A stretch of 64,000 bases of DNA from an uncultured Prevotella sp. Its GTDB lineage: Bacteria > Bacteroidota > Bacteroidia > Bacteroidales > Bacteroidaceae. The number at the start of each line of letters is the position of its first letter. Position 1 is the first letter of the stretch. The notes beneath the pieces were generated by a model. It was given only the letters and a program-made list of their open reading frames with translations, was not told where the DNA came from and made no database searches. Positions 1,184 through 51,106 of the stretch are shown here, one piece after another. The stretch is from the NCBI GenBank assembly GCA_964487905.1, contig CAZASQ010000001.1, positions 49,613 to 113,612 on the forward strand, read 5' to 3'. The translations under genes were made by a program, and so were the position numbers.

Positions 1184-3391
1184 TTATTTCAAATAGTCCT
1201 CAAAATATTGTGTAATGCGCTCATGCAGATGCACACTTTGGTGGCCTCGCATATTGTGCGGCTCGCCTGGATAGACGTAAAAGTCGGGCTGCGTACCAGC
1301 CGCGATACAGGCTTTGAGGAACGAATATGCGTGCTGGGGCACCACCGTGGGGTCGTTGAGTCCCGTAATAATCTGCAATTTCCCCTTCAAGTCCTTGGCT
1401 TTCTTGAGAAGTGAGGTCTGCGCATAGCCCTCTGGATTGGCTTGAGGAGTGTCCATATAACGCTCTCCATACATCACCTCATACCACTTCCAATCAATAA
1501 CCGGGCCTCCGGCCACACCTACCTTGAAGACATCGGGATAATTTGTCATCAAAGAAATGGTCATGAAACCGCCAAAAGACCATCCATGCACACCAATGCG
1601 ATCTTGATCAACATAAGGAAGCGACTTCAGATACTCAACACCTTTCATTTGGTCTTTCATCTCTTCCTGTCCAAGGTGACGGAACGTGGCCTGCTCAAAA
1701 TCCCTGCCACGGTTTTCGCTTCCCCGGTTGTCAAGGATGAAGAGCACATAACCTTTCTGCGCCATGTAAGTCTCCCACGAACGAGAGCTGTAATGCCAAC
1801 GCGCATCCACATTATGAGCATGAGGACCACCGTAGACATAAACTACCGTCGGGTATTTCTTTGACGCATCGAAATCAACAGGCTTCACCATACGCCAATA
1901 AAGGTCGGTTGTGCCATCGGCAGCCTTCAATGTTCCACAAGTGTATTCGGGCACTTTATAACCCTCCCATGGGTCTGCGGCCGTGAGCCAATTGACGCGC
2001 TTGCCGTTAGTTTCGATAATATCAATCTTGCGCGGCACATCCGGCTCGGAGTAATTGTCGCAGATGGCCACACCACTTTCGCTAAGCGACGGCCAATGCC
2101 ACCCCTTTCCATTATCAAGCAAAGTACGCTTGCCGTCCTTAACACTTACCATCCATGTGTTACGCTGAATCGGCGAGCACTCATTCGAGGCATAAACAAT
2201 GGCCTTACGCTTCAAATCGAAACCAAGCAACTCCATCACGACCCAGCTTCCTTGCGTGATTTGCTGTGGCTGACCTCCATTTACATCAAAGAGATAGAGG
2301 TGGTTGTAACCGTCTTTCTGACTTTGGAATATAAACTTCGAAGCATCCCAAGGAAGGAACTGTATGGGGTGCTGCGGCTCAACATACTTTTCGTGCTTCT
2401 CCTTATATAATACACACAGCTTATCGCCCGTTGTCGCATCATATTCCACAAGTTCCATGTTGTTTTGATCGCGGTTCAGTTCCTGCATATAGATGCGGTT
2501 GCCGTCTGGAGACCAAGCAACATTGGTGAAATAACGGTCGGTAGGATCGCCCGCCTTCAAATAAACGATACCACCCGTTGCAACATCATAAACGCCCAAA
2601 GTAACCTTGTGCGAAGTCTCACCCGCCATCGGATACTTGATTAAGTCGGCCTTAGCCGCACGCGACTGCCCCTCACCCGGTGTCCAGTCAAGTTCAGGAA
2701 CATCGATGAGCGGATAATCAATCACCATACTTTGATCCATACGGTAGAAAGCAAGGCGATTGCCTTGGGGATTCCAAAAAAGTCCGCCACGAATACCGAA
2801 CTCATCACGGTGAACGCTTTGCCCATAGACAATGCCATGCGAGCCGTCCTGCGTAAGCTGACGCGTATTGCCATCTGCCGTAGTCACATAAAGCTGATCA
2901 CCTTTGACATAAGCCGTTGCATTTGTTCCTGCATTCCACTCCAAGGCTTGCGTTCCTTGCACTCTGCTCCAACGCTTCACCACCTGACGCTTCTTGAAAT
3001 CAACCAAGATATTCTCACGGCCATTCACCACAAGCACCTGCGGCTTACCCGCATAAGGGAAGGTCGCTGAATAGAAATGGCGTATTTTCTCTTCCGATGC
3101 ACTCAGCCCCGCCCACGAATTAATGTCTTCAAGCGAGAACAAGCGCGTTTCCTTGCCATTACGCAAGTTCACTTCAGCGCAATACTCCACCTCAGTTCGC
3201 ACCAAGCGGTCGCCCCACCATGTAGTGTAACGATTCTCGGGAATCATGTTACGGTAGTTTGTCCCACCATAGTTGAGATCTTCAAGCGTAAATTGCTTTT
3301 GAGCCATTGTAGTTGTCGTGTTCAATGGGTTCAGCAAAGCACACCCTACAAGAGTTGCGCAAAGCATTGATCTTAAGGCTTTAATCTTCAT
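1184..3391 (-). CDS. Dipeptidyl-peptidase IV (S9B prolyl dipeptidyl peptidase), secreted
   Basis: 735 aa with an N-terminal signal peptide. The long N-terminal region is consistent with a beta-propeller. The C-terminal alpha/beta hydrolase has the GWSFGGF nucleophile elbow and a conserved Asp/His region (NDPTV...GEPHNM). Confidence 0.88.
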
Positions 3392-4922
3392 AGTCTATCA
3401 AATCATTTCTGTTAGGTTTCTTTTTAAAAGGACTCTCGCCGCGCTTGATGTCCCGCTTGGCGCGATCGCCGCGGTCAGCCCACCGCTTTCCAGGAGCTTT
3501 GCGAGCCGGACGCTTGTCGGCAAAATCCTTTCCAAACGGCTTACGCCCCCGCGCTTCTTTACTTTCTCCACGCTCACTACGGCGGAAAGGCTTCCGCTCC
3601 GAGCGCGAGAAGTGGTGCTCATCGTGTTCAAACTTGTGGAACGTAAAGCTACGAATGTCGCCATCCTCGTTCTCGCTCCTTGCATCCAGCAACTGCTTGA
3701 ACTCACGATTCTTCTTGAAACGGTGCTTTTGCGCCATCTCTGCCTTTTCCTCTTCGGTTTTCACCACTCCGCCCTCATGACGGAAGTCACTCATCTTTCC
3801 ATCGAAGAGCTGATAACGGCGGAACTCACACTCCAAAGAGCCATTATAGAGCGGAATCTTGATGCTGGGCTTGAGACCTATCTGACGGAAGCACTCCTCA
3901 CGGTAGGACAGCACCCACGCCTCATTACCCATGAATTCGTGCTTCAGACGCTCGCCTATCATTTTATAGGTAGCCAGCAGGTTGGGCGTGGAGATACGCT
4001 CACCATAAGGGGGATTCATGATAATAACGCTTTTCTCCTGCGGACGTGTGAAATCCTTGAAATCGCGGCAATCCAGCGTTATATCCTTGGTAAGCCCCGC
4101 AGCCTTGACATTGATACGCACCGTATTGACGGCTTTCATATCCGTGTCGTATCCATAAATATGATGTTCGAACGGACGCTCGCGGCTGTCGTCATTGTAA
4201 ATCATATCGAACAGCTCCGCATCGAAATCGGGCCACTTCTCAAAAGCAAACCCCTTGCGGAACACACCCGGAGAGATGTTGCGGGCAATGAGAGCCGCCT
4301 CGATGGGAATTGTTCCCGAGCCACACATGGGATCAATAAGATCGGTCTCGCCCTTCCAACCTGACATCAGAATCATACCTGCGGCAAGCACTTCATTGAG
4401 GGGAGCCTCAACGCTCTCCTGCCTATACCCGCGCCGATGCAACGACTCTCCACTACTGTCCAAAGACAAAGTTGCATCGTCCTCGGCCACATGAATGTTG
4501 AGCCGGATATCCGGATTGGTCACGGAGATGTTAGGACGCTTGCCCGTTTTCTCGCGGAACTGATCCACGATGGCATCCTTCACCTTGTAAGTGACGAAAC
4601 GCGAATTGCGGAATTCATTGGAATAGACCACGGAGTCAACGGAAAAGGTTTTCCCCTCGCCGATATACTCGCTCCAATCTATCTTGCGCACTTCATCGTA
4701 CATATCTTCGGCCGACTGCGCCTTGAAATGAGCGATAGGCTTGAGGATGCGGATGGCCGTGTGCAACTGAAAATTTGCGCGATACATCATTTCTTTATCG
4801 CCGGTAAACGACACCATACGCCGTCCCGTCTGCACATTGTTGGCTCCTAACTCTGTGAGCTCTTGCGCCAAGACCTGCTCCAGTCCCATGAACGTCTTGG
4901 CTATGAGTTCAAATTCTTTCAT
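3381..4922 (-). CDS. THUMP-domain class I SAM-dependent RNA methyltransferase (COG0116 / RlmL-like) with a ~137-aa basic C-terminal extension
   Basis: The N-terminal ferredoxin-like/THUMP region is followed by a Rossmann methyltransferase with DPMCGSGTI and NPPYGER motifs. The tail is rich in R, K and E (SERKPFRRSERGESKEARGRKPFGKDF...). The gene overlaps the DPP-IV start by 11 nt. Confidence 0.85.
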   Translation of the reverse strand: MKEFELIAKTFMGLEQVLAQELTELGANNVQTGRRMVSFTGDKEMMYRANFQLHTAIRILKPIAHFKAQSAEDMYDEVRKIDWSEYIGEGKTFSVDSVVYSNEFRNSRFVTYKVKDAIVDQFREKTGKRPNISVTNPDIRLNIHVAEDDATLSLDSSGESLHRRGYRQESVEAPLNEVLAAGMILMSGWKGETDLIDPMCGSGTIPIEAALIARNISPGVFRKGFAFEKWPDFDAELFDMIYNDDSRERPFEHHIYGYDTDMKAVNTVRINVKAAGLTKDITLDCRDFKDFTRPQEKSVIIMNPPYGERISTPNLLATYKMIGERLKHEFMGNEAWVLSYREECFRQIGLKPSIKIPLYNGSLECEFRRYQLFDGKMSDFRHEGGVVKTEEEKAEMAQKHRFKKNREFKQLLDARSENEDGDIRSFTFHKFEHDEHHFSRSERKPFRRSERGESKEARGRKPFGKDFADKRPARKAPGKRWADRGDRAKRDIKRGESPFKKKPNRNDLIDYED

Positions 4923-5311
4923 TATGACTTTAAAAATTATCTACCGTGCCCCCACCCGCAGAGCCTGTTCCTCAGACATGACAACGCTTTCGCACTGACG
5001 ACTCAGCACCACAAAACGCATGACTTTTCGGCCACTCTTTGATGACGCACATTAAAAAACAAGGGCAAAATTACGAAGAAAATATGGTTATGCCAAATTT
5101 TTCATTCTTTGTTCCATCATAAGACGGCATTTTATCTTCTTGACAAGCAATCCCATACCCTCTTTCCCACCCAACATCCACACCGCGAACACACAATGCC
5201 GCACGTCTCGCCACACATACCCTACCCGCACGCCCATCCCCCCTTCCACCTCTTCCAAACAGGCTTCTCAGCCCTCCTCCATCCCCACCCATACACATCG
5301 CGCCAGCATTA

Positions 5312-5394
5312 CCATACCTTTTACGCGGCAAAAGCTTACCTTTTGTTCTGCAAAACGTTACCTTTCGCATTCCAAAACCTTACCTATTGCACAC
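5312..5394. repeat. Copy 1 of the dispersed 22-bp-periodic intergenic repeat (4 units)
   Basis: The units are ccatacctttt, caaaagcttacctttt, caaaacgttacctttc and caaaaccttacctatt. The CAAAA starts fall at 5329, 5351 and 5373, spaced exactly 22 bp apart. Confidence 0.8.
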
Positions 5395-6388: not shown

Positions 6389-6462
6389 CGGGGTGTAGCG
6401 CAGCCCGGTAGCGCTCCTGGTTTGGGACCAGGTGGTCGCAGGTTCGAATCCTGTCGCCCCGA
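6389..6462 (+). tRNA. tRNA-Pro (anticodon TGG)
   Basis: I folded a 74-nt cloverleaf by hand. The acceptor is cggggtg/cgccccg, the D arm gcgc-agcccggta-gcgc, and the anticodon arm cctgg-ttTGGga-ccagg. The T arm contains GTTCGAATC. No CCA is encoded. Confidence 0.93.
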
Positions 6463-8587: not shown

Positions 8588-9067
8588 ATGATGGAAAAAG
8601 CATACGAGAGATTGAAGCAATGTGGAATAAAGCCGTCCAAACAGCGGGTGGCCATAATGGAGTATCTCCTCACCCACCCCACGCATCCAACGGTGGAGGA
8701 GATCTTCAATAACCTGCTCCCGCAAATAAAGACGCTTTCGCGCACAACGGTCTATAACACACTACGCTTTTTCTCCGAATGCCACGCAGCACAAATGCTG
8801 ACCATCGATGACCATCGCGTTTGCTATGATGGCAACATAACTCCACACGTGCACTTCTTCTGCAAAGAATGCGGAAAGGTGTACGACTTTATGGACGAGC
8901 CGGCTCCAAGCGCATGGCATAAAGGTACACCCAAAGGATTCACCATTCAAGACACCCAACTCTATTACCGCGGTGTCTGCGCAGCGTGCAATGTAAAAAA
9001 GACCGTCTTAACCCCTCATTTAAGAACAATGGAAAAAGACATCATGCCTGAAGCCATGGCTTGCTGA
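8588..9067 (+). CDS. Fur-family transcriptional regulator (PerR-like)
   Basis: 159 aa with a winged-helix N-terminus (KPSKQRVAIMEYL...HPTVEEIF...ISRTTVYNTL). The metal-site motifs are HVHFFCKECG and a C-terminal CAAC. Confidence 0.85.
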   Translation: MMEKAYERLKQCGIKPSKQRVAIMEYLLTHPTHPTVEEIFNNLLPQIKTLSRTTVYNTLRFFSECHAAQMLTIDDHRVCYDGNITPHVHFFCKECGKVYDFMDEPAPSAWHKGTPKGFTIQDTQLYYRGVCAACNVKKTVLTPHLRTMEKDIMPEAMAC

Positions 9068-9158: not shown

Positions 9159-9719
9159 ATGAAAAAGAAGTTTATTTGCACAGTTTGCGGTTATGTTCAT
9201 GAAGGCGACACCGCCCCCGAGAAGTGCCCCATCTGCAAAGCACCAGCCAGCAAGTTCAAAGAGTTGAGCCCCGAGGACGAAACTGAGTTTGCCACCGTTC
9301 ACGAATTGGGCATCGCTTACAAGGACAAAGTGTCTGACCAACTGATTGAGCATTGCAAGATGACCTTCAACGGCGAATGCGCCGAAGTGGGTATGTACTT
9401 GGCCATGGCTCGTCAAGCCGACCGCGAGGGATACCCCGAAATTGCACGCGCTTTCGAGCACTACGCTTACGAGGAAGCCAATCATGCCAGCCGCTACGCA
9501 GAATTGCTTGGAGAAGTGCTGAAAGATACCAAGAGTAATCTTATGGCACGCATGCAAGCAGAGAAAGATGCTTGCGCTGAGAAGTTCGAAGCTGCCAAGA
9601 TGGCCAAAATGGAAGGCTCTGACGCACTGCATGACACCATTCACGAAATGGCCAAAGACGAGGCACGCCACGCCGCAGGCTTTATCGGCTTGTACGAACG
9701 CTACTTCAACAACAAGTAA
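9159..9719 (+). CDS. rbr: Reverse rubrerythrin (N-terminal rubredoxin domain plus C-terminal ferritin-like diiron domain)
   Basis: The N-terminal Cys4 site is CTVCGYV...CPICKAP. It is followed by diiron ExxH helices (EEANHASRYAE, EMAKDEARHAAG). The domain order is reversed relative to classical rubrerythrin. Confidence 0.88.
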   Translation: MKKKFICTVCGYVHEGDTAPEKCPICKAPASKFKELSPEDETEFATVHELGIAYKDKVSDQLIEHCKMTFNGECAEVGMYLAMARQADREGYPEIARAFEHYAYEEANHASRYAELLGEVLKDTKSNLMARMQAEKDACAEKFEAAKMAKMEGSDALHDTIHEMAKDEARHAAGFIGLYERYFNNK

Positions 9720-9954: not shown

Positions 9955-10390
9955 GAAGGCAGTGTTCCGGCTCTGTCGCTGGTCTCTATCAAGAGGTCAG
10001 AGGAAAGTCCGGGCAGCGTGAGGGTATCCTGCTTCCGAAAATAGAAGCTGCTGGCAACAGTAGGAGACGCAGAAGAAAATAACCGCCACAACCGTGTTAC
10101 GTATTGTCCTCCAACAAGGAAAAACTAACACATTAGGAGTGGTAAGGGTGAGAAGGTGGCGTAAGAGACCACCAGCCGACGGGTGATCGTTCGGGCTGTG
10201 CTATTCAGGAGCTGCAAATTCATGTAAACCACCGACCGAGGTAACCCACCCAAGTTCTCCTCACGGGGATGCGGTGGAGGGTAGAATGCTCGAGCCGACA
10301 GGTGACTGTCGGCGTAGATAAATGACAGGCACTCCACTATTATCGAAAGGTGAGTGGAGAACAGAACCCGGCTTATAGGGACGCTGCTTT
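9955..10390 (+). ncRNA. rnpB: RNase P RNA, bacterial type A (ends approximate, within about 10 nt)
   Basis: It contains the universally conserved GAGGAAAGTCCGGGC (CR-I, about 10000-10014) and ACAGAACCCGGCTTA (CR-V, about 10361-10375). P1 can pair gcagtgttcc (9959-9968) with gggacgctgc (10378-10387), and a T-run follows. The minus-strand ORFs 9900..10091 and 10125..10337 are spurious. Confidence 0.92.
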
Positions 10391-10490
10391 TTTCTTTTCA
10401 CACCGTTCAAGGCAACAAGCCGTTACAAGTACCTTGCGTTTAATACGCGCTCCACGGAATAGCCTTTGACAAGACACTTTACGAAGAGAC

Positions 10491-15472: not shown

Positions 15473-16711
15473 ATGAACATCAGCAACCTTTTCAAAATAG
15501 CCTTGCGCGCCATTGCGGCCAACAAGACACGCTCGTTTCTCACTGCGCTGGGCATCATCATCGGCATTGCGTCCGTGATTACAATGCTTGCCGTGGGACA
15601 AGGAACAAAGAAGAGCATACAAAGCAACATATCGGAAATGGGGTCGAACATGATCATGATTAGCCCCGGAGCCGATATGCGGGGCGGTGTGCGTCAAGAT
15701 GCCTCCTCCATGGAGACGCTGAAACTCACCGACTATCAGTCGCTGAAAGAAGAATGCCACTACATCAAGGCCATCACCCCGCTTGTACAAAGCTCCGGCC
15801 AGTTCATCTATGGCAACAACAACACACCCTCGTCTATCTATGGAGCCAATCAAGACTACCTGAACATACGCCAAGTATCTGTGGCAGAAGGTGAGATGTT
15901 CACCGATGCCGACATTAAGGCAAGCGCAAAGGTATGTCTGCTTGGCCAAACGGTGGTGGACAATCTCTTCCCCGATGGTGCCGACCCCATCGGAAAGGTG
16001 GTTCGCTTCAACTCCATTCCCTTCCGCGTCATCGGAGTAATGAAGAAAAAAGGATACAACTCCATGGGTATGGATCAAGACGACTATGTACTTGCGCCTT
16101 ACACCTCGGTAATGAAGCGAATACTCGCACAAGACTACCTGCACCAAATCATTGCTTCCGCCGTGATAGAGGGGGTTACGGAGCAGGCCACAGCGGAAAT
16201 GACAACGATTCTGCGCCGGACACACAAGCTGAAAGAAGCCACCAATGAGAATACTGGCGATGATGACGACTTCAACATCCGCTCGCAAGAAGAACTGGCC
16301 AACATGATGAACTCCACCACGGGCATGCTCACCGTGCTGCTGGGCTGCGTAGCCGGCATCTCGCTCATCGTTGGTGGCATTGGCATCATGAACATCATGT
16401 ACGTAAGTGTCACGGAGCGCACGCGAGAGATAGGCTTGCGCATGAGCGTTGGAGCGCGCGGCATAGACATTCTCAACCAGTTCCTCATTGAGGCCGTCCT
16501 GCTCAGTGTCACGGGAGGCATCATCGGTGTACTGTTGGGCGTGAGCGCCTCATACGCCGTGAAACTATTGGCCCACTGGCCCATCTCCATCGAACCCTGG
16601 ACCATCATCATGAGTTTCGCCGTCTGTACGCTCACGGGCGTGTTCTTCGGCTGGTATCCTGCAAAGAAAGCCGCCCGTCTCGACCCCATTGAGGCTATCC
16701 GCTACGAATAG
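15473..16711 (+). CDS. ABC transporter permease (MacB-type FtsX fold with a large periplasmic domain)
   Basis: 412 aa with TM1, a periplasmic domain of about 220 aa, and three C-terminal TM helices. The conserved ERTREIG and PAxKAA..DPIEALRYE motifs are present. Confidence 0.9.
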   Translation: MNISNLFKIALRAIAANKTRSFLTALGIIIGIASVITMLAVGQGTKKSIQSNISEMGSNMIMISPGADMRGGVRQDASSMETLKLTDYQSLKEECHYIKAITPLVQSSGQFIYGNNNTPSSIYGANQDYLNIRQVSVAEGEMFTDADIKASAKVCLLGQTVVDNLFPDGADPIGKVVRFNSIPFRVIGVMKKKGYNSMGMDQDDYVLAPYTSVMKRILAQDYLHQIIASAVIEGVTEQATAEMTTILRRTHKLKEATNENTGDDDDFNIRSQEELANMMNSTTGMLTVLLGCVAGISLIVGGIGIMNIMYVSVTERTREIGLRMSVGARGIDILNQFLIEAVLLSVTGGIIGVLLGVSASYAVKLLAHWPISIEPWTIIMSFAVCTLTGVFFGWYPAKKAARLDPIEAIRYE

Positions 16712-16744: not shown

Positions 16745-16808
16745 GAACGCCCGGCAAGCTTGGCGCAGATTCAAGGTTCTGCCTTCGCCTTGTCGGGCGT
16801 TCCTTTTT
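16745..16808 (+). terminator. Putative terminator hairpin after the efflux operon (long loop)
   Basis: Arms gaacgcccggcaag (16745-16758) and cttgtcgggcgttc (16789-16802) form 14 bp with one G-T pair, followed by cTTTTTg. Confidence 0.5.
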
Positions 16809-16901
16809 GCCTTCTCTTTCTTCCCCTCCATCCGTATCTACTTCAATAGACACACTGGGCAACCACACACTTCTTCAACCACTTAATTATCAATGGATTA
16901 A

Positions 16902-16983
16902 GAAAAGGTATGGTTTTATCCTCCAAAACCATACCTTTTGCACGGCAAAAGAGCCGCTATGAGACTGCAAAACGTAACCTTTA
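16902..16983. repeat. Copy 2 of the 22-bp-periodic intergenic repeat (4 units; the first two form a perfect 15-bp hairpin)
   Basis: Unit starts fall at 16902, 16924, 16946 and 16968, exactly 22 bp apart. aaaaggtatggtttt (16903-16917) is the reverse complement of aaaaccatacctttt (16925-16939). The last unit overlaps the stop codon of the HAD gene. Confidence 0.85.
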
Positions 16984-17655
16984 AGGATACAAAATCTCCT
17001 CCGGCCGTTCCACAAAGCACGAAGCACCATGTCCAAGGAGGAAATCCCTATCGCGAAATCCCCACAATACGCTGATACAGGGTATCCCTACGTTGCGCGC
17101 GGTCTGTACATCCACCTCGCTGTCGCCGATGTACACCGCCCCATCTTTTCCCACCCCCATCTGCCGCATAGCCTCCAGCACCGTGTCGGGCGCAGGCTTT
17201 TTGCGAATGTCTTCACGCTCGCCAATAGCTACCTCCACGGTATCGAAAAAGAAATGACGCGCCAACTCCTGCGTGGCCGCATAAAACTTGTTGCTCACGA
17301 TGGCCACCCGCTTGCCCCGACAACGCAATTCGCGAAGCAAAGCCGCAATGCCGGGATAAGGCGATGTGGTGTCAAGGCTGTGTTGCAGATAATGCTCACG
17401 GAACGTGGCAAAGGTTTCCTCAAACTCAGGATTGTCCAATCCTTGGGGAACAGCACGCTCCATGAGTTTCTTCACTCCGTTGCCAACAAACATTCTCACC
17501 TCCTCCGTGGTGCGTTCTGGCAAACCATGCGCGCGCAAAGCGTAATTAGTGCTGGCAGCAAGGTCTGCAAGCGTGTTGAGCAACGTGCCATCCAAATCAA
17601 AAATATATGTCTGATACTCTTTCATTTTCCCTTTATAACAGTATTTATCTTCCAC
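16981..17655 (-). CDS. HAD-superfamily hydrolase (phosphoglycolate phosphatase-like)
   Basis: Motif I is FDLDGTLLNT, followed by VSNK and GDSEVD motifs. The start overlaps the end of the upstream glucanotransferase gene by 11 nt. Confidence 0.8.
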   Translation of the reverse strand: MEDKYCYKGKMKEYQTYIFDLDGTLLNTLADLAASTNYALRAHGLPERTTEEVRMFVGNGVKKLMERAVPQGLDNPEFEETFATFREHYLQHSLDTTSPYPGIAALLRELRCRGKRVAIVSNKFYAATQELARHFFFDTVEVAIGEREDIRKKPAPDTVLEAMRQMGVGKDGAVYIGDSEVDVQTARNVGIPCISVLWGFRDRDFLLGHGASCFVERPEEILYP

Positions 17656-20496: not shown

Positions 20497-22890
20497 TCAG
20501 AACTCAACCGTGATGCGTCCATTGATTTGACGTCCAGTAAGGTAGTTCGGAACGGCATATTGCTGCCCCGTAACGTCAGTGATCCAATAGTAACTGTTAA
20601 CATTGTTGATGCCAAAAAGGTTGAGACAGTCCAACCCAAGCCACACATTGCGGAATATAGACGGCTTTCCGCCATCGTGATTGTCGTAAAGACGATAGCT
20701 CATACCTATGTCTGCGCGCTTGTAAGCGGGCGCACGGAACGTGTTACTTTCCAACTCACGGTGCGGAGCCGAGAAAGGAAGACCGTCAGCATAGGCCAAA
20801 CGCAAGCTCATACGCCAACGCGTGGTACCCGGGAAATAATCCGTGAAATAGAGATTGATGGCATATCGCTGGTCGGTGGGGAGCGGAAGGCTCACCCCGT
20901 TAAGTTTCATACGCGTGCTCATCAAACTGAATGTAAGCCAAGAGGTCGTTTCGGGAACAAACTCACCAAACAACTTCAAGTCAATACCTGCGGCATGACC
21001 CGATGCCTCCTGATCGCCAAAGTACGTAACCTTGACATTATCCACCACATAAGGAGTCAGACGGGAAAGTATCTTATAATACAATTCCGCACTGAACTTA
21101 AACGGCCGTTCCATCATTCGGAAACTATAGTCCATCGCACCTACTATATGGACAGAACTTTGAGCCCGTATATTCCGATTCAGATTGGCATACGTAACTC
21201 CGGAGATGGTGGTTGTGTCGCGCAATTCCTTATAGAACGGAGCTTGATAGTAGAGACCCGTAGCCACACGGAAAGCCAAATTGCGATTCCATCCCGGCAC
21301 CACATTCAGCGAAACGCGCGGAGAGAAGAGGCTCTCCCCATTGAAATTCCAATGAGCAAAGCGTACTCCGTAGCTCAAAGTATAAAGCGTTGGAACACTG
21401 TCGCGGCTTTGGAAACTCCAATTGTCTTGCAAATAGCCCTCAAAGCGATTAGCTCTCAACTCATTGCGAGCACGAAGAGAATAGATCATATTCAAATTCT
21501 CACCCGTGTGCGGAATATTATAGCCGGCCGAATCACGATACTCATACTCCGAAGAATTTTCGCGAATGCGCTCCAACTTATAAATCAATGCACCCTCAAC
21601 ATTATGATGCTGCGTCCGACGGTTCACCATCAGTTTCAGCGCACCAGTCGTTGCCTTTAGGTAATCGCGAGAATGCTGCATATAAGTGCCTACGCCCAGA
21701 TTCTCAGACGTTTCTGTTTGCGTCAGCCAATACTGCCCTTGTATGTCATAACGTTCCTGCTCCTTGGTCGTAAACACCGAGGCCAGCAACGAAACCGACG
21801 TCTTATTGTCCTTCAAGTGATGCGTAAGCCCCAGCGAGCCGAAGAAAGTGCGGAACAGATCCTTCTCCTTGCCATCGAAATAGACTTGGAAATTCTTCAC
21901 ATTCTCCATCGTACCAAAGTTAGTATTACGGTCTTCCGGCTCAAAGTTGTAATGGTTATCCGAAATATTTCCTATGAAATCTATCTGCCAACGCTTGGAG
22001 GGCTGCCACGAGAAGTAAGTCTGATAATCTATAAAATTAGGATTATACTCTCCCTTTGTCTCCAAAGACCCTAACAAATAACGATTGGTCTTATAGCGGA
22101 ATCCATTCGTCCACGTGAATTTCTTCGCCGCCAACCCCACATAAGCACTCGCCCCAAGCAATGAAGCCGTAACTTTGGCCTCGGTGCGGTTCGGACGCTT
22201 GTAAACAATATCAAGAGCCGAACTCATCTTGTCGCCATATTTAGCCTCAAAGCCTCCGCTGGAAAAGCCCACCGACTGCACCATATCGGGATTGATAATG
22301 GAAAGTCCCTCCTGCTGTCCGCTGCGCACGAGGAACGGACGGAACACCTCCACATTGTTAATATAGACAGAATTCTCATCAAATGAGCCACCGCGCACAT
22401 TGTATTGCGATGTCAGCTCCGAGTGAGTGCTCACGCCCGCCTGCGTCTGAATCATCTCCTCTACGGCATTTCCCGTAGCCGAAGGGCCTTGGCGCACATT
22501 ATCAAGGTCGAGCTGCTCCGTAGTTCCCTGACGTTTTTTCTTTCCCTCAACCGTCACCTCGCCCAACTCGTTGTCATCCGAAAGCTGAATGAGAAGCGTT
22601 TGCCGCCCTTTGGGGTTGCGGAGCACGCGGGTCTTCGTCTTATAGCCTACCATAGAGAAGCGTACCGCCACACTATCAGAACTTTGCAGCGTCATATTAA
22701 ACTCGCCCTTGAGGTTGGTCATGGACAGTTTCCCTTGCGACACCACCATCACAGAAGCCAGTTCTATGGGGTTGCCATTTGAGTCAGAGACTTTTCCCTG
22801 AAGCGTAAACGATTGCGCACTCATCCCTGCACTAACCAAAACAAGCGCAAGCAAGGCTATAATGTGTCGGACAAATTTCATATAATTCAT
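20497..22890 (-). CDS. TonB-dependent receptor with an N-terminal carboxypeptidase-regulatory-like domain
   Basis: 797 aa with a signal peptide. The CarbopepD_reg-like region is FTLQGKVSDSNGNPIELASVMV...GEF and the plug is NVRGGSFDENSVYINNVEV. A long barrel ends in an aromatic terminal residue (VEF). Confidence 0.85.
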   Translation of the reverse strand: MNYMKFVRHIIALLALVLVSAGMSAQSFTLQGKVSDSNGNPIELASVMVVSQGKLSMTNLKGEFNMTLQSSDSVAVRFSMVGYKTKTRVLRNPKGRQTLLIQLSDDNELGEVTVEGKKKRQGTTEQLDLDNVRQGPSATGNAVEEMIQTQAGVSTHSELTSQYNVRGGSFDENSVYINNVEVFRPFLVRSGQQEGLSIINPDMVQSVGFSSGGFEAKYGDKMSSALDIVYKRPNRTEAKVTASLLGASAYVGLAAKKFTWTNGFRYKTNRYLLGSLETKGEYNPNFIDYQTYFSWQPSKRWQIDFIGNISDNHYNFEPEDRNTNFGTMENVKNFQVYFDGKEKDLFRTFFGSLGLTHHLKDNKTSVSLLASVFTTKEQERYDIQGQYWLTQTETSENLGVGTYMQHSRDYLKATTGALKLMVNRRTQHHNVEGALIYKLERIRENSSEYEYRDSAGYNIPHTGENLNMIYSLRARNELRANRFEGYLQDNWSFQSRDSVPTLYTLSYGVRFAHWNFNGESLFSPRVSLNVVPGWNRNLAFRVATGLYYQAPFYKELRDTTTISGVTYANLNRNIRAQSSVHIVGAMDYSFRMMERPFKFSAELYYKILSRLTPYVVDNVKVTYFGDQEASGHAAGIDLKLFGEFVPETTSWLTFSLMSTRMKLNGVSLPLPTDQRYAINLYFTDYFPGTTRWRMSLRLAYADGLPFSAPHRELESNTFRAPAYKRADIGMSYRLYDNHDGGKPSIFRNVWLGLDCLNLFGINNVNSYYWITDVTGQQYAVPNYLTGRQINGRITVEF

Positions 22891-23012: not shown

Positions 23013-23095
23013 CAAACCATTCCCTTTGCCCTCCCAAACCTTACGTTTTGGCGTGCAAAAGGTATGGTTTCGCCACGCTAAAGGTAACCTTTTCC
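23013..23095. repeat. Copy 3 of the 22-bp-periodic intergenic repeat (4 units)
   Basis: The units are caaaccattcccttt, caaaccttacgtttt, caaaaggtatggtttc and ctaaaggtaacctttt. They start at 23013, 23035, 23056 and 23078. Confidence 0.8.
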
Positions 23096-30499: not shown

Positions 30500-31192
30500 A
30501 TGCCGTCCCATTCATTCTCTTTCAAACAGTTTACCATACAGCAAGACCATTGCGCCATGAAAGTTGGAACCGATGGCGTTCTGTTAGGAGCATGGGCAAA
30601 GGGCGGGCAACGCATCCTTGACATTGGCACAGGAACCGGGCTTATAGCACTGATGATGGCTCAACGCTTCCCCGAAGCACACATTGACGGCATTGAGATT
30701 GTGGCCGAAGCTGCCGCGCAAGCAAACGAGAACGCATCCCGCAGTCCTTTCGCCGAAAGAGTGTCCATCTTCAACGTCTCCTTGCAGCAATACCACGCAG
30801 ACGCATATGATGCCATAGTGGCCAACCCGCCCTACTTCCCGCACGCCTTGAAAAGCCAAGACAAGGCGAGAGCCACTGCAAGGCAGACCGATTCTCTCAG
30901 TTTTCGCGATCTAAGCAAGCACAGCGCACGATTGCTGACCGCCGAGGGCACACTAAGCATCATTCTCCCCACAGACCAAACACCCGAAATGGAGGCAGAA
31001 GCGGCCTTTGCCGGACTATGCCTAAACCACCGCATCATGGTAAGCACATCAGAAAAAAAGCCACCCAAACGCTGCCTGCTCGCATTTGGCAAGCGCAACT
31101 CACCTTGTTTCTCTGAAGAAAAAGAATGTATAGTCATCAACGGGCAACCATCAGCATGGTATGAGGACTTGGTCTCGTCATTCTACTTATAA
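30500..31192 (+). CDS. tRNA1(Val) (adenine37-N6)-methyltransferase (TrmN6/YfiC-like)
   Basis: The FKQF.I.QD.CAMKVGTDGVLLGAWA N-terminal signature, the SAM motif DIGTGTGLIAL, and catalytic NPPYF. Confidence 0.85.
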   Translation: MPSHSFSFKQFTIQQDHCAMKVGTDGVLLGAWAKGGQRILDIGTGTGLIALMMAQRFPEAHIDGIEIVAEAAAQANENASRSPFAERVSIFNVSLQQYHADAYDAIVANPPYFPHALKSQDKARATARQTDSLSFRDLSKHSARLLTAEGTLSIILPTDQTPEMEAEAAFAGLCLNHRIMVSTSEKKPPKRCLLAFGKRNSPCFSEEKECIVINGQPSAWYEDLVSSFYL

Positions 31193-31290
31193 GGCAAGTT
31201 CCACGGGAGGTACACACCTTCCTGTCCATACGTCCCCCAGCACACCTGCACACTCAACCTTCCGCAGCCACCTTATAATAAAGCACTTAG

Positions 31291-31397
31291 CAAAACATTA
31301 CATTTCACCTTACCAAACGTTACGTTTTACCACGCAATATGTATGGTTCCACTTTGCGAAACCATACATATTGCGACTGCAAGGCTTATCTATTTGC
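31291..31397. repeat. Copy 4 of the 22-bp-periodic intergenic repeat (5 degenerate units, with an internal 15-bp hairpin)
   Basis: Units start at 31291, 31314, 31335, 31357 and 31380. gcaatatgtatggtt (31335-31349) is the reverse complement of aaccatacatattgc (31360-31374). Confidence 0.75.
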
Positions 31398-31580
31398 TCA
31401 CCACAAAACTTATACTACAAATGCAAACAAAACCGTTTGGAACAAACTTCTATCCAAACAGACGGTCAGCCTCATTCCAAACGGCCGACAAACGGACGTA
31501 ATCAAAGTTTCCTTACACTCTCATCCCCTCTTGCATCCACGCCCTTTTGCGCTCTACAAGCTCCGCTTTACGCAAACGGC

Positions 31581-32873
31581 TCAAAGGAAAGGCGAGAGCA
31601 AATGCCCAGCCCAGCCCACAAACTTTTTCCACGGCGTGCGCCATTGCTTCCATGTTTCAGGCGTAAGCAAAAAAGACTCTTTCTTTTCCCGCTCAAAGAG
31701 GTTGTCAAGCTGTCGCGTTACATGAGGGTCTATAATGACGGCATTCTCCTCACGGTCCCATCTTAGCGAGCGAGCATTGAGATTGGCCGATCCCACCGTG
31801 CAGACCTGCCCATCCACCATTATTACTTTCGTGTGATGAAACCCCGGCTCATAGAGCCAAATCTGGCATCCTTTCTTCATCAGTTTGTGGGCATTGTAGA
31901 AACCAACATCGGGAGTAATCGGAATATCGCTCTTTACGCTGAGCATAATCTCTACCTTCACGCCCCGCTTCACGGCATCGGCCAAGGCGCGCTTCAAGCG
32001 GCGCGTAAGCGTAAAGTAGGGATTAATCAGCTTAATACTGTCTTTCGCAGCATTGATGGCATTGAGATAGAAATAACGGATAATATCTCGCGTGACCTGC
32101 GGTTCACGATTGATGATTCCCACCATCTGATGCCCCGCCGTAGAGGTGGTGTCGGGCTTCAAGCCAGTCATATAATCGGCATTGCTTACCCCACGGTAAT
32201 ACTTTGCCCCATGCACATCTTGCCCCGAGACCAGCTTCCACATTCGCAAAAAAATGCGTTGCAGCGTGTTCACTTCATCGCCCTCTATGCGGCAGTGCAT
32301 ATCATGCCAGCTCCCCACGACCTCCGTGCCATTGATATAATAGTCAGCCACGTTCATCCCACCTGTATAAGCCACCTTGCCATCAATAATAACTATCTTG
32401 CGATGGTCGCGATTGAACGCGTCATGCAGCCAAGGGAACTGCATCGGCTTGAACTCATAGATTTCAATGCCCTTTGAGCGTATGGCCTCAACATCGCTCT
32501 TGCGCATAGGCTGATTATTGCTCGCGTTGCCAAAGCCATCGAAGATGGCCCGCACCTCCACGCCCTCGGCAACCTTGCGCTCCAAGCGCAACATCAGTTC
32601 ACGATTGATGGAGTCGTTGCGGAAATTAAAGTATTCGAGATGAATGCTTGAACGCGCTTGCTCAATGGCCTTGAACAAGTCTTCGAACTTTTCTTTGCCA
32701 TTGACAAGCAACGTAACGGAATTATTGTGGGAAAAAGTTATGCCCTTTTCCCTAAGCCGCTGAACAATCACGCTGTCGGCACGCTGCGCCAGCACGCTGG
32801 AAGCGCAAAATACCAAGAGCAAGAGTATGACTTTAAGTCGTCTCAACCTTCTTATCTGCTTTTCTTTATCCAA
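31581..32873 (-). CDS. cls: Cardiolipin synthase (PLD superfamily, two HKD motifs)
   Basis: HRKIVIIDGKVAYTGGMN and HHTKVIMVDGQVCTVGSANLN, with an N-terminal membrane anchor. Confidence 0.85.
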   Translation of the reverse strand: MDKEKQIRRLRRLKVILLLLVFCASSVLAQRADSVIVQRLREKGITFSHNNSVTLLVNGKEKFEDLFKAIEQARSSIHLEYFNFRNDSINRELMLRLERKVAEGVEVRAIFDGFGNASNNQPMRKSDVEAIRSKGIEIYEFKPMQFPWLHDAFNRDHRKIVIIDGKVAYTGGMNVADYYINGTEVVGSWHDMHCRIEGDEVNTLQRIFLRMWKLVSGQDVHGAKYYRGVSNADYMTGLKPDTTSTAGHQMVGIINREPQVTRDIIRYFYLNAINAAKDSIKLINPYFTLTRRLKRALADAVKRGVKVEIMLSVKSDIPITPDVGFYNAHKLMKKGCQIWLYEPGFHHTKVIMVDGQVCTVGSANLNARSLRWDREENAVIIDPHVTRQLDNLFEREKKESFLLTPETWKQWRTPWKKFVGWAGHLLSPFL

Positions 32874-40612: not shown

Positions 40613-40698
40613 GCAAAAGGTCACCTAACGCATAGCAAAACGTTACGTTTGAGACGGCAAAAGGTATGGTTTTGCAGCATCAAACCATACCTTTCGCC
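40613..40698. repeat. Copy 5 of the 22-bp-periodic intergenic repeat (4 units; the last two form a hairpin)
   Basis: Units start at 40613, 40635, 40657 and 40681. aaaggtatggttt pairs with aaaccataccttt across a 9-nt loop. Confidence 0.85.
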
Positions 40699-40782: not shown

Positions 40783-42954
40783 TCATGCCTCATTGCTTGC
40801 AGCCAGCTCGGCCATAACGGCACGCACATCATCGAAAGTGACTTCGGGCGGACAAAGATTCTTAACTGGCGTGGCGGCTTCCACCGTCCCTATCTTGTCT
40901 ATAACCTTCATAATGGTGGCATACTTCTCTGCCCCCACCAAGCTGACAGCCTTTATCTTTCCCTTCCGGACATAGTCCAACAGATGTCCAAACACCGTTG
41001 ACACAGCCAAACCACGCTCCCGGGCGATGCTCTCAACATCCTCGCCCTTGACAAAGGCTTGATACGTAAGTTCCTGACTGTAGCCTTTCGGCTTCTTCTT
41101 AGACTCAGCGCGCTTCTTCTTCACCTTTCCCCCACTCTTCTCCCCTCCATCCTGCACATTGAGCAAAGCCACCTGCTTGGCATGGAGATAGCTGCCCACA
41201 GAGAAACCTTGGTCGGCAACAACGGCCAGCACTGCCTCCTTCACCTCCACAGCCTCAACCAATTCAGAGGCTACTGTGTCGAAGCGGCGCATAAGCGTTT
41301 TGTTTGTCAGCCCTATGCGGCGCATGGCCGGGAGCAAATCGCTGAAAATGGCAACAAGTTGCTGATGAAAATAGTCTGCACTACGCCCCACGCGCTCCAA
41401 GAACTGCTCCTCATGCAATTGCTCAAAAGGCATTGATGCAATACATCGTGTCCACTTGTCGGCCACAACAAGCATTTCCCGCAACTGACTGTCCACTGTT
41501 TGCAAAAGCTGCTTGAGCGTTTCTTGCGTGAACAGATGCTCCACGATCAACCGCTGCATACGCTGCTCGCATTGCAATAGCTGCCAAAAGCCAAACAACT
41601 CCAACAGCTGCTGACGCTCATATTCCTGCTTCAGCTGAGGCAATTTGCGCACCGCGCCCATCGCTTTCTCTTCCTGCCCCTCCATATAGCTGCTCACCCG
41701 GCCATCGTTCATGATGGCATGGCGCGAGACCGGAGTGCTCAAGACAAGTCCTTCGAGCGTCTTGCAACGGCTGAGAGCCACATAAACCTGTCCCGGGGCA
41801 AAGGACTGGGCAGCATCGATGACTACGTGCTCAAACGTAAGACCTTGGCTCTTGTGAATAGTTATGGCCCACGCCAGTCGCAAAGGATACTGGGCAAACA
41901 CGCCCTGCACCTCGGCCTCAATCTCCCGCGTTGTTTCATTAAGCGTGTAGCGCATATTCTCCCATTCGCCACGCACCACGTCTATGGGCAACGCATCGCC
42001 CGGACAGAGCACCCGAATGGTCTTTGAGTCAAGGTAAACCACGTGCCCGATGCGCCCATTATAGTATCTTCCTTCGGCATCATTCTTAACAAACATCACC
42101 TGCGCGCCCTCTTTGAGCACCAGCCGTTGGTCTGTTGGGAAGTTATAGGCAGGGAACTCGCCCTCCACTGTGGCTTCATAGGTGAACGATGCACCCCGCA
42201 GCGAAGCCAACTGCGACTGATTGTGGTTGTCTGCCATACGGTTGTGGGTGGTCAGACGGATATAGCCCGCCTCGGCATGAGGACTAAACGTGGGCAGATG
42301 GCGAGCGTTGAGTTGTTGCAAGTCCTCTTCGGTCAGATTATTGCAACGCACGGCATTAAGAAGACGGATGAAAGACGCATCCTGCTGTCGATAGACACGA
42401 CTCAATGTGATGGTAACGTAGTCCACCTGCCGCAAAGCCATCGAACTGAAGAAATAAGGCGTGTCGTAACAATCGTGCAACACCGCCTCATCCTCGGGGG
42501 TAACCACTGGAGTAAGCTGCTGCAAATCGCCTATCAAGAGCAACTGCACGCCGCCAAATGGCTTGTCGTGCTCACGAAAGCGGCGCAAAACGGAGTCAAT
42601 GGCATCAAGAAGGTCGCTCCGCACCATAGACACCTCATCGATGACAAGCACATCAAGCGTTCGGATTATCCTACGCTTGTCCTTGCTGAAGTTGAACCGA
42701 TGCCGCATCTGCGACCCGGGAAGATAGGGCGAGAATGGCAACTGAAAGAAAGAATGAATGGTAACGCCGCCCGCATTGACGGCCGCCACACCCGTGGGAG
42801 CCACCACCACAAGCCGCTTTCCACTCTTCTCCTTGAGCATTTTGAGGAATGTGGTTTTTCCCGTACCGGCCTTGCCCGTCAGGAACACACTCTTCCCCGT
42901 ATGCTCCACAAACTCCCACGCGGCACGCAATTCGCTATTTTGCTCCATCGGCAC
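40783..42954 (-). CDS. Pif1/RecD-family SF1B DNA helicase with a C-terminal helix-turn-helix domain
   Basis: Walker A GKAGTGKTT, Walker B LVIDEVSMV, and Pif1-type motifs (LIGDLQQLTPV, HKSQGLTF, YVALSRC). A C-terminal HTH-like region covers the last ~90 aa. Confidence 0.85.
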   Translation of the reverse strand: MPMEQNSELRAAWEFVEHTGKSVFLTGKAGTGKTTFLKMLKEKSGKRLVVVAPTGVAAVNAGGVTIHSFFQLPFSPYLPGSQMRHRFNFSKDKRRIIRTLDVLVIDEVSMVRSDLLDAIDSVLRRFREHDKPFGGVQLLLIGDLQQLTPVVTPEDEAVLHDCYDTPYFFSSMALRQVDYVTITLSRVYRQQDASFIRLLNAVRCNNLTEEDLQQLNARHLPTFSPHAEAGYIRLTTHNRMADNHNQSQLASLRGASFTYEATVEGEFPAYNFPTDQRLVLKEGAQVMFVKNDAEGRYYNGRIGHVVYLDSKTIRVLCPGDALPIDVVRGEWENMRYTLNETTREIEAEVQGVFAQYPLRLAWAITIHKSQGLTFEHVVIDAAQSFAPGQVYVALSRCKTLEGLVLSTPVSRHAIMNDGRVSSYMEGQEEKAMGAVRKLPQLKQEYERQQLLELFGFWQLLQCEQRMQRLIVEHLFTQETLKQLLQTVDSQLREMLVVADKWTRCIASMPFEQLHEEQFLERVGRSADYFHQQLVAIFSDLLPAMRRIGLTNKTLMRRFDTVASELVEAVEVKEAVLAVVADQGFSVGSYLHAKQVALLNVQDGGEKSGGKVKKKRAESKKKPKGYSQELTYQAFVKGEDVESIARERGLAVSTVFGHLLDYVRKGKIKAVSLVGAEKYATIMKVIDKIGTVEAATPVKNLCPPEVTFDDVRAVMAELAASNEA

Positions 42955-50946: not shown

Positions 50947-50992
50947 AAGCATATCGGATTTTCTGTAAAAAGAGAGTCCGATATGCTTTTTT
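50947..50992 (+). terminator. Intrinsic terminator after the lipoprotein operon
   Basis: A 12-bp stem, aagcatatcgga (50947-50958) / tccgatatgctt (50977-50988), followed by TTTT. Confidence 0.8.
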
Positions 50993-51019: not shown

Positions 51020-51106
51020 CGAAACGTATGCTTTCGGGCAACAAAACCATATGTTTGACAGCCTAAAACGTTACGTATGACACGGCAAAACGTATGGTTT
51101 CATGCA
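51020..51106. repeat. Copy 6 of the 22-bp-periodic intergenic repeat (4 units)
   Basis: The units are cgaaacgtatgctttc, caaaaccatatgtttg, ctaaaacgttacgtatg and caaaacgtatggtttc. They start at 51020, 51042, 51063 and 51086. Confidence 0.75.

Follow-up and report, generated by a model that had tools for sequence, protein, structure and literature searches.

Helically phased quasi-palindrome arrays between genes of a Prevotella sp., candidate docking sites for HU-HIG proteins

The question raised by the 64,000-nucleotide stretch of DNA analyzed here (hereafter the window; uncultured Prevotella sp., assembly GCA_964487905.1, contig CAZASQ010000001.1, positions 49,613 to 113,612, forward strand) is why six of its intergenic regions carry short rows of near-palindromic sites on a fixed 22-bp lattice, and what, if anything, reads them. 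In a first-pass annotation made from the sequence alone, these loci were described as one dispersed family of strictly 22-bp-periodic, A4/T4-flanked units, for which a REP/MITE-like element, an array of binding sites for a nucleoid or regulatory protein, decoy promoters and RNA stability elements were offered as possible roles.

Anatomy and phasing of the arrays

The observation itself was confirmed, as all six loci are as described. By scanning the window for the core AAAASSWTAYSTTTT with up to two mismatches, we found 28 hits, 24 of which lie in the six loci, while dinucleotide shuffles gave 3.1 +/- 1.9 (maximum 8). A two-unit pattern at 22-bp spacing gave seven hits against 0 expected. All 25 units, four or five per locus, fall on an exact x, x+22, x+44, x+66 register within their arrays. 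Each unit consists of C-AAAA, a 7-nt core, TTT(T/C/G) and a 6-nt linker, or in generalized form YAAAA, a core of the type SS-WWW-SS with a TA step, TTTT and a linker that is free in sequence, so that A4 and T4 tracts alternate every 11 bp. The features are listed in Table 1.

Other details of the first-pass annotation also hold. Neighboring units are reverse complements in arrays 2, 4 and 5, and arrays 2-5 fold far better than shuffles (z = -3.1 to -5.1), although arrays 1 and 6 do not fold significantly. The peptide strings QKVWF (nt 23056 and 40658) and QYVWF (nt 31335), seen in spurious reading frames across different copies, are translations of CAAAAGGTATGGTTT and CAATATGTATGGTTC. The condition named beforehand as one that would refute the description, i.e. 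that the 22-bp phasing disappears when more copies are aligned, was examined with 127 arrays from other genomes, and the phasing became sharper, with 309, 201, 110 and 35 pairs at 22, 44, 66 and 88 bp against at most 10 at neighboring distances. One correction concerns array 2, which lies between convergent genes and whose last unit contains the TAA stop (16981-16983, minus strand) of a HAD hydrolase gene.

Table 1. Arrays and array heads in the window, with flanking genes. Fold z, folding relative to shuffles; curvature, percentile of the window in a wedge model.
Feature	Position	Strand	Structure	Flanking genes	Further evidence
Array 1	5308..5394	.	Four units, all cores in one orientation (CCATACC, GCTTACC, CGTTACC, CCTTACC); 13-mer cores at 5309, 5331, 5353, 5375	Divergent: THUMP methyltransferase 3381-4922(-) and WG-repeat gene starting at 5541(+) (Pfam)	Fold z = -0.85
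Head of array 2	16885..16900	+	Palindrome TAATTATCA and perfect IHF-type consensus TATCAATGGATTA (16888-16900), in phase with the units (palindrome center 22 bp before center of first core)		Nearly invariant in four lineages
Array 2	16902..16983	.	Four units; units 1 and 2 an inverted pair (15-bp stem); unit 3 with a non-consensus but conserved core; unit 4 overlaps the HAD stop	Convergent: FtsX/MacB 15473-16711(+) and HAD 16981-17625(-)	Pairwise divergence 1.8% in the array against 28.5% in the 80 nt to its left; fold z = -5.1; curvature 99th percentile
Array 3	23013..23095	.	Four units; unit-2 core inverted in place between lineages (AAACCTTACGTTT against AAACGTAAGGTTT)	Divergent: TonB-dependent receptor 20497-22890(-) and ORF at 23216(+)	Curvature 98th percentile
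Head of array 4	31278..31290	+	Degenerate, AATAAAGCACTTA, one mismatch to WATCARNNNNTTR, at the same offset as the head of array 2		Conserved in four lineages
Array 4	31291..31397	.	Five units, partly degenerate; units 3 and 4 an inverted pair sharing non-consensus AATA/TATT arms	Convergent: methyltransferase 30500-31192(+) and PLD gene 31581-32873(-)	Fold z = -3.8
Array 5	40613..40698	.	Four units; loop between inverted units 3 and 4 inverted between lineages (TGCAGCATC against GATGCTGCA)	Tandem, minus strand: helicase 40783-42954 and 283-aa gene 39657-40508	Fold z = -4.1; curvature 99.7th percentile
Array 6	51020..51106	.	Four units, about 30 bp beyond a strong terminator hairpin at 50947-50988	Convergent: 49505-50860(+) and 51221-53230(-)	Fold z = -1.8; curvature 96th percentile

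Distribution, conservation and the IHF-type head

The family is widespread in Prevotellaceae, as 127 arrays of 2-7 units were found in 109 sampled loci, with distances peaking only at 22, 44, 66 and 88 bp. Of 125 arrays, 112 lie outside ORFs of at least 100 aa, and of 86 classified arrays 26 lie between divergent genes, a context distribution like that of all intergenic gaps. Hence the earlier claims of a dispersed, strictly phased family that is neither simply a terminator nor simply a promoter hold. Information content in the linkers is only about 0.05-0.2 bit, and each genome has its own favorite core. In Rfam searches at the gathering score only RNase P RNA and one tRNA matched in the window, while permissive scans of arrays 2 and 5 gave only generic hairpin hits far below threshold, and no published description of the family was found in the searched literature.

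Orthologous sites were compared in three to four related lineages (GH77 protein 82-89% identical), which were reached through Logan/ENA contigs, a search of JGI metagenomes with the GH77 protein having found nothing. Arrays 2-4 are present in all four lineages and array 5 in all three compared, without gain or loss, and no extra arrays occur in about 30 kb of aligned DNA. Over arrays 2-4, pairwise divergence is 0.067 for the A4/T4 tracts, 0.067 for the SS arms, 0.115 for the center and 0.235 for the linkers, with flanking intergenic DNA at 0.15-0.37, i.e. cores diverge 3-4 times more slowly than linkers. Only one gap column was found in 272 array columns. The arrays are therefore maintained, and not recently mobile. 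The fixed length of linkers without fixed sequence points to a helical-phase constraint on DNA. Base pairing, on the other hand, is not conserved: only 38% of 553 units are self-complementary at both SS pairs, against 23% expected, and adjacent asymmetric units are in the same orientation 45 times, inverted 30 times and other 90 times. This argues for reading as double-stranded DNA.

About one third of the arrays carry, at one end and in phase, a palindromic head matching the IHF consensus WATCARNNNNTTR. The exact consensus occurs about 45-50 times in the 60-nt array flanks, in 43 of 126 arrays, whereas background density predicts 2.6 and shuffles give 1.8 +/- 1.4, an enrichment of about 20-fold. 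The offsets step by 11 bp, and the head palindrome is found at one end in 42 arrays and at both ends in none of the 127. Both the consensus and a role of A-tracts in IHF sites are described in the literature. A wedge model, with parameters entered from general knowledge rather than from a source, predicts 67-99 degrees of curvature over 120 bp for arrays 2, 3, 5 and 6.

Association with HU-HIG genes

Arrays of the same kind lie directly upstream of many genes for HU-HIG proteins (PF18291), whose profile matches HU and IHF structures. Four-unit arrays of CAAAAGCATAGCTTTC at 22 bp are located at -117 to -39 of an HU-HIG gene in L128/L129 (L numbers are our labels for sampled sequences), and arrays also lie before its homologs in Prevotella dentalis (DSM 3688, with its AAAAGCTATGCT array), Prevotella sp. 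HUN102 and metagenome contigs. Out of 26 HU-HIG clusters (80% identity), at least 10 have a 22-bp array within 300 nt upstream, against 4-8% of control genes, and with the family core 23 of 71 loci have one upstream and 6 of 74 downstream. The palindrome differs by cluster, namely AAAGCATAGCTTT, GAAACCGTGCCTTTC, AGTGAGGCCATCTCACT, AAATGGGCATTT and GAGCAGTGCTC. Only part of the clusters have arrays, one distant member has none, and the loci are phylogenetically non-independent. Furthermore, no HU-HIG gene lies in the window or in about 45 kb of its relatives, and no HU-type gene was found beyond chance next to the dispersed arrays in the 109 loci. The association thus concerns genomes other than the window's own, without a cognate HU-HIG gene having been shown for CCATACC/CGTTACG-type sites in this lineage.

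The arrays in front of HU-HIG genes, which were not found in the literature, share with the dispersed ones the unit (CAAAAGCATAGCTTTC plus a 6-nt linker), the 22-bp period and the typical number of four units. They are, however, tied to one gene, ending about 40 bp before its start or lying between its promoter and start, while the six window arrays are not next to any HU-HIG gene and have cores (CCATACC, CGTTACG, GGTAACC) that differ from those seen before HU-HIG genes so far.

Interpretation

The explanation we favor, with no more than moderate confidence, is that the arrays are selection-maintained docking platforms on double-stranded DNA for HU-HIG proteins. In this view, each 15-bp quasi-palindrome, A4-SS-(TA-containing triplet)-SS-T4, would be a site for one dimer of a DNA-bending protein of the HU/IHF fold, most likely a paralog of the Bacteroidota-specific, fast-evolving HU-HIG clade. 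With the sites locked two helical turns apart, 3-5 dimers would sit on one face of DNA that phased A/T tracts already curve, together forming a compact wrapped particle of about 90-110 bp, and in about one third of copies the terminal, in-phase palindrome, carrying the IHF-type consensus WATCAR-N4-TTR on both strands, may act as a nucleation or high-affinity site. In spacers between transcription units, close to gene 3' ends and usually 90-400 bp from gene starts, the arrays would act as architectural or insulating elements, functionally analogous to the IHF- and gyrase-binding BIME/RIP elements of E. coli, while the same kind of array in front of HU-HIG genes would give autoregulation. What our analysis demonstrates is the anatomy, the phasing, the family distribution, the conservation at orthologous sites with core-specific constraint, the enrichment of the IHF consensus and the association with HU-HIG genes together with co-variation of the cores, whereas protein binding itself, the identity of the reader, the wrapping and the insulating role are inferred.

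HU-HIG proteins are described as lineage-specifically expanded, fast-diverging and of unknown function (PMC5499826), which fits the genome-specific cores. On the other hand, Burroughs et al. argued that they are unlikely to be sequence-specific transcription factors (PMC5499826), and an array before a gene could be the operator of some other regulator. The interpretation given in the first-pass annotation was partly supported: of its options, the binding-site array is the one favored by the evidence, i.e. purifying selection on the cores, linkers free in sequence but of fixed length, the IHF-consensus head and the link to HU-HIG genes, while RNA-level roles are not excluded.

A more far-reaching reading, which appears possible but remains tentative, is that these arrays, together with sister families with other palindromes on the same 22-23-bp lattice in other Prevotellaceae, are the chromosomal docking lattice of the HU-HIG proteins. 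Each fast-evolving paralog would then be a sequence-specific architectural protein with its own private palindrome, controlling its own gene through an upstream array and assembling nucleosome-like wrapped particles at roughly a hundred or more intergenic arrays, which would partition transcription units, and phages would copy the same lattice in their replication origins. This would be a sequence-programmed, chromatin-like system in Bacteroidota whose protein-DNA code diversifies lineage by lineage.

Prevotellaceae are dominant gut, rumen and oral bacteria, and if this window is typical, about one intergenic region in ten carries such an array. The arrays are a clean natural example of selection on helical phase, and give a concrete, testable DNA target for the HU-HIG proteins, a large Bacteroidota-specific radiation whose function has been an open question since it was defined in 2017. 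They also link chromosomal repeats, putatively autoregulated histone-like genes and phage replication origins through one shared site architecture. Practically, they break assemblies and spawn spurious ORFs (the QKVWF-type hypothetical proteins), and should be masked or annotated in Prevotella genomes.

Alternative explanations

The alternative that survives best, although we consider it unlikely, is that the arrays are read by another protein, e.g. as iteron-like sites for a winged-helix, initiator-type or other lineage-specific DNA-binding protein, or by none, acting purely as intrinsically curved DNA (phased A-tract clusters) that shapes the nucleoid or local supercoiling. A variant is that chromosomal arrays titrate phage replication initiators. 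The same 13-bp core at the same 22-bp spacing forms three-unit arrays followed by AT-rich repeats, inside or beside DUF6291/Phg_2220_C initiator-like genes next to DnaB-type helicase, Erf and RusA genes in six viral contigs, which is the lambda-O/ori layout. A different protein family can thus evidently use such sites. In L123, an array is flanked by inverted DnaA-box-like words. Predicted curvature is also high for four of the six window arrays, and A4 and T4 alternate every 11 bp. However, the chromosomal arrays lack the AT-rich unwinding block and any adjacent initiator gene, their flanking genes being housekeeping, and curvature alone does not explain the conserved SS-WWW-SS core with a TA step, the genome-specific cores or the IHF-consensus head. 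Sister arrays in front of HU-HIG genes include palindromes without A-tracts, for example AGTGAGGCCATCTCACT, and a trans-acting decoy role would put only weak selection on each single array, yet the cores are strongly constrained.

Somewhat less likely is action as a single strand, i.e. as hairpin clusters in transcripts (bidirectional terminators, 3'-end protectors against exonucleases or targets of an RNA-binding protein, as described for E. coli REP sequences) or as cruciforms or hairpins in DNA. Four of the six arrays have strong foldback potential, and an inverted unit pair has the A4-stem-loop-stem-T4 form of a bidirectional intrinsic terminator. This layout fits array 2 on the minus strand, where it starts at the stop codon of the HAD gene, which has no other terminator, while arrays 1 and 3 lie between divergent genes and arrays 5 and 6 lie beyond separate terminators. 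Some arrays are whole palindromes (e.g. in L028), the two in-place inversions of a loop or core show that the arms do interact in vivo, and arrays lie 0-170 bp from gene 3' ends. No RNA run was found to hold the window's organism, but RNA contigs of P. bivia span an array between co-directional genes, although they give no ends. Against this reading, pairing is not conserved and adjacent asymmetric units are more often direct than inverted, G-to-A changes in the alignment of array 4 break both pairs of a unit without compensation, 26 of 86 classified arrays lie between divergent genes, and an exact 22-nt spacing with free linker sequence has no obvious RNA rationale.

The least likely of the three is that the arrays are selfish or neutral relics of a REP/MITE-like or minisatellite element, which spread in the past, persist because they are harmless and are kept similar by gene conversion among the many copies rather than by a host function. 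Copy number is high, with six arrays in 64 kb and contig depth over units 1-2 about 20 times the single-copy depth, the genome-specific cores could reflect lineage-specific bursts or homogenization, copy number varies in some arrays (L136) and units are 97% identical in L165-167. Arrays also avoid promoters and sit near 3' ends, like tolerated insertions, and BrickBuilt of Porphyromonas gingivalis is a precedent in the same order. This is opposed by the absence of gain or loss at four loci, by the invariant non-consensus unit 3 of array 2, which conversion from consensus copies would erase, by the core-specific constraint, and by the lack of terminal inverted repeats, the head occurring at one end only. 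The array ends are not sharply defined, and no empty site was available for comparison. The MITE reading and membership of the REP family were not supported. Decoy promoters have no support beyond a near-miss to the Bacteroidota -7 box pointed out in the first-pass annotation, the spacing of which is wrong on both strands.

Comparison with related systems

REP/BIME elements of E. coli and other enterobacteria, including the IHF-binding RIP/RIB type, likewise comprise hundreds of short palindromic units dispersed in intergenic DNA and clustered in small arrays in direct or alternating orientation. They occur between convergent, tandem and divergent genes, often close to 3' ends, a subset carries a site with the IHF consensus, and architectural, topological and mRNA-end roles have been proposed. 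In contrast, the units here are 15-bp quasi-palindromes on a rigid 22-bp lattice, while REP spacing is not known to be helically locked. Moreover, the GTAG/GTGG tag is present in the 6 nt before the A-tract in only 3 of 557 units, hairpin pairing is not conserved, and the phylum differs.

BrickBuilt (Klein et al. 2015, PMC4596501) is found in Bacteroidales as tandem units of 22-23 nt without spacers, always intergenic, with predicted stem-loops, no Rfam match and often beside Rho-independent terminators. It has 1-22.8 direct repeats between a leader and a tail of about 300 nt each, with IS5-like terminal inverted repeats, and 19 copies per genome, and is restricted to P. gingivalis and P. gulae. 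The present arrays have no leader or tail, span Prevotellaceae and are stable at orthologous positions, and IS5-like inverted repeats of the BrickBuilt type are not enriched within 400 nt (11 of 127 arrays against about 8 expected).

Iteron arrays of replication origins, e.g. lambda ori within gene O, the 22-bp iterons of plasmid R6K and the DUF6291-type phage origins seen here (L119-L126), share three to five dyad-symmetric sites about two helical turns apart and intrinsic curvature from phased A-tracts, and the identical 13-bp core AAACCATAGGTTT at 22 bp occurs both in the phage arrays and in chromosomal arrays. The chromosomal arrays, however, have no AT-rich unwinding element, DnaA boxes or initiator gene next to them, these features being present only in the viral contigs, and number about one per 10 kb.

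Additional observations

A link to the Fur regulator was considered, since TGATAATCA equals the center of the E. coli Fur box and a Fur gene lies at 8588-9067, but no supporting evidence was found, including in a literature search. A role of the head as promoter or operator of the neighboring gene was not supported either, as the head-side gene points away in 23 of 37 cases, which is not significant, at distances of 90-650 bp with no fixed offset. A conserved 118-nt leader upstream of the head in six rumen MAG loci is specific to that locus and not part of the element. Lastly, all six window arrays show the better-kept CAAAA end on the plus strand, and the window has a strong uniform GC skew (-0.08 to -0.16); an orientation tied to replication was considered. 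In other genomes, however, head-defined orientation does not follow the skew (25 against 15; 9 against 7 among strongly skewed loci), and one locus holds two opposite arrays, so the asymmetry is probably mutational.

Unit structure and extent of the family

Reading the six loci in a 22-nt register showed the same unit throughout, i.e. C-AAAA, a 7-nt core of the form SS-WWW-SS, TTT(T/C/G), and then a 6-nt linker with no conserved sequence, so that A4 and T4 tracts alternate every 11 bp. The core pattern, allowing up to two mismatches, was found 28 times in the window, against 3.1 +/- 1.9 in shuffled sequences, and 24 of these hits lie in the six loci. A two-unit pattern at 22 bp was found 7 times, against 0 expected, and all 25 units lie on an exact 22-bp lattice within their arrays. 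The observation made in the first-pass annotation was thereby borne out. The peptide strings that it had found to be shared between spurious ORFs are simply translations of the unit. Array 2 lies between convergent genes, and its last unit contains the stop codon of a HAD hydrolase gene on the minus strand. In Rfam, nothing was found for the arrays, the only matches in the window being an RNase P RNA and a tRNA elsewhere. A strong and uniform strand asymmetry runs through the whole window, with a GC skew of -0.08 to -0.16 and a positive AT skew whatever the gene orientation. In all six arrays the CAAAA end is better kept than the TTTTG end on the + strand, which is probably a mutational consequence of this skew.

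By scanning representative prokaryote genomes with a two-unit pattern, we found at least 109 stretches, nearly all of them from Prevotellaceae, namely Prevotella, Hoylesella, Xylanibacter and Palleniella, including P. bivia and P. brunnea, and often with many stretches per genome. In these loci together with the window, 127 arrays of 2-7 units were delimited, with a mode of 4. Distances between cores peak at 22, 44, 66 and 88 bp (309, 201, 110 and 35 pairs, respectively), with at most 10 pairs at neighboring distances; the loss of phasing with more copies, which the first-pass annotation had named as grounds for rejection, was consequently not seen. The consensus unit is YAAAA-SS-WWW-SS-TTTT-R, where the center is TAT, ATA, TTA or TAA and hence always holds a TA step. 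Each genome has favorite cores, e.g. GCTATGC, CCATAGG, GGTAAGC or GGTAACC. Out of 125 arrays, 112 are intergenic, and they occur in divergent, convergent and tandem contexts (26, 20 and 40, respectively), much like all gaps of 80 bp or more (87, 55 and 181). They sit 0-170 bp from gene 3' ends, but mostly 90-400 bp from gene starts.

About one third of the arrays carry a head, i.e. a palindrome, TGAT(A/T)ATCA, flanked by TAA-N5 and N5-TTA, which is found at exactly one end and never at both. Its offsets are 18, 29/30, 33 or 40/41 nt, which places it on the 11-bp grid of the array. Read on either strand, the head is WATCAR-N4-TTR, the IHF consensus given in the literature. The exact consensus occurs about 45-50 times in the 60-nt flanks, in 43 of 126 arrays, whereas background density predicts 2.6 occurrences and shuffled sequences give 1.8 +/- 1.4. 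Array 2 has a perfect copy, and array 4 a copy with one mismatch at the same offset. The head core TGATAATCA is also the center of the E. coli Fur box, and a Fur-family regulator gene lies in the window, but no link between the two was shown. In six loci from rumen Prevotella MAGs (L018, L038, L044, L069, L077 and L079), a 118-nt conserved non-coding leader precedes the head and a five- to six-unit array, which is followed by a clear intrinsic terminator. The upstream genes differ between these loci. This may be a small transcription unit or sRNA that contains an array.

Features with coordinates in the window and in other loci
Sequence	Position	Feature
Window	6389-6462	tRNA gene
Window	8588-9067	Fur-family regulator gene (seen as PF01475 in the syntenic locus L113)
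Window	9959-10391	RNase P RNA (class A, 188 bits)
Window	16745-16815	Long hairpin terminator after the FtsX/MacB permease gene
Window	16888-16900	Perfect IHF-type consensus at array 2
Window	23036-23048 and 40672-40684	In-place inversions against the loci L111/L112 and L117/L118 of close lineages
Window	31430-31510	Conserved stretch just after array 4
L123 (viral contig)	9443-9540	Three-unit array bracketed by DnaA-box-like words
L136 (metagenome contig)	2100-2360	Expanded run of the 22-bp unit upstream of the P. dentalis-type HU-HIG gene

Conservation at orthologous sites

The window comes from a gut-metagenome organism, whose GH77 protein has relatives at 82-89% identity, after which identity drops to 41%. 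Syntenic contigs of three such lineages were compared with the window. Arrays 2, 3 and 4 are present in all four lineages, and array 5 in all three compared, with no array gained or lost over about 30 kb. Array 2 with its head is almost invariant (1.8% pairwise divergence), while the 80 nt next to it are 28.5% diverged. Beyond this fast-evolving sequence of about 80 nt, the terminator of the FtsX/MacB permease gene is conserved in the four lineages with compensatory changes. Over arrays 2-4, divergence is 0.067 in the A/T tracts, 0.067 in the SS arms, 0.115 in the center and 0.235 in the linkers, with one gap column in 272. The cores are therefore under purifying selection, and the linkers drift in sequence but not in length. 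The stretch just after array 4 is more conserved than the array itself (CAAACAAAACCGTTTGG ... CCAAACGG ... CAAACGG), with possible long-range pairing CCGTTTGG/CCAAACGG.

Two of the changes between close lineages are in-place inversions, one of the 13-bp unit-2 core of array 3 and the other of the 9-nt loop between the inverted units 3 and 4 of array 5, as in the hairpin-loop flip-flops of plastid DNA. The inverted arms do interact during replication or recombination. Arrays 2-5 have strong foldback potential, but arrays 1 and 6 do not. Across 553 units, only 38% are self-complementary at both SS pairs (23% expected), neighboring asymmetric units are more often direct than inverted, and substitutions break pairs without compensation. 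Taken together with the fixed spacing of unconserved linkers and the presence in divergent spacers, this favors reading as duplex DNA, while RNA data were uninformative. A wedge model, run with provisional parameters, predicts 67-99 degrees of curvature for arrays 2, 3, 5 and 6, i.e. the 96th-99.7th percentile of the window.

Putative readers of the arrays

The same pattern was found in 11 viral contigs. In six of these (the IMG/VR contigs L119, L121, L122, L124, L125 and L126), three AAACCATAGGTTT units at 22 bp plus AATGTAAATG-type AT-rich repeats lie inside or beside a DUF6291/Phg_2220_C initiator-like gene, which sits next to DnaB-type helicase, Erf and RusA genes. This is the lambda-type layout with the origin inside the initiator gene. 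Because 22 is not a multiple of 3, the three units of these origin-like arrays are read in all three frames (KKPLVS / KTIGF / KNHRF). In the viral contig L123, a three-unit array is bracketed by inverted DnaA-box-like words (GTTATTATCCGCC ... GGTGGATAATAAC).

In two of the 11 viral contigs, a four-unit array lies at -117 to -39 of an HU-HIG gene. Homologs of that gene in P. dentalis, Prevotella sp. HUN102 and related contigs all have such arrays, with variable unit number, while a 45%-identical member has none. The much expanded run in L136 is interrupted by an assembly gap of Ns, and unit number is therefore strain-variable there. In 80 metagenome loci, at least 10 of 26 HU-HIG clusters have a 22-bp array within 300 nt upstream, against 4-8% of control genes, and with the family core 23 of 71 loci have an array upstream and 6 of 74 downstream. 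The palindrome differs by cluster, and in one cluster the array lies between the promoter and the gene. The proteins match HU and IHF structures, and HU-HIG is a fast-evolving Bacteroidota radiation of unknown function.

The arrays are thus a real, widespread, selection-maintained and apparently undescribed repeat family. They would work like REP/BIME elements, but fail defining features of REP, MITE and BrickBuilt. The best-supported mechanism is phased docking of an HU/IHF-fold protein, where the sequence family and its maintenance by selection are shown by the analysis, whereas the binding itself is inferred, the HU-HIG loci being from outside the window's own genome. The interpretation in the first-pass annotation, which had offered a binding-site array alongside e.g. 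a REP/MITE-like element, is hence supported in part. In two HU-HIG clusters (loci L130, L133, L135, L140 and L153-L162), an exact IHF-type consensus (AATCAANNNNTTA) ends at the start codon (position -12), and it is absent from the other clusters.
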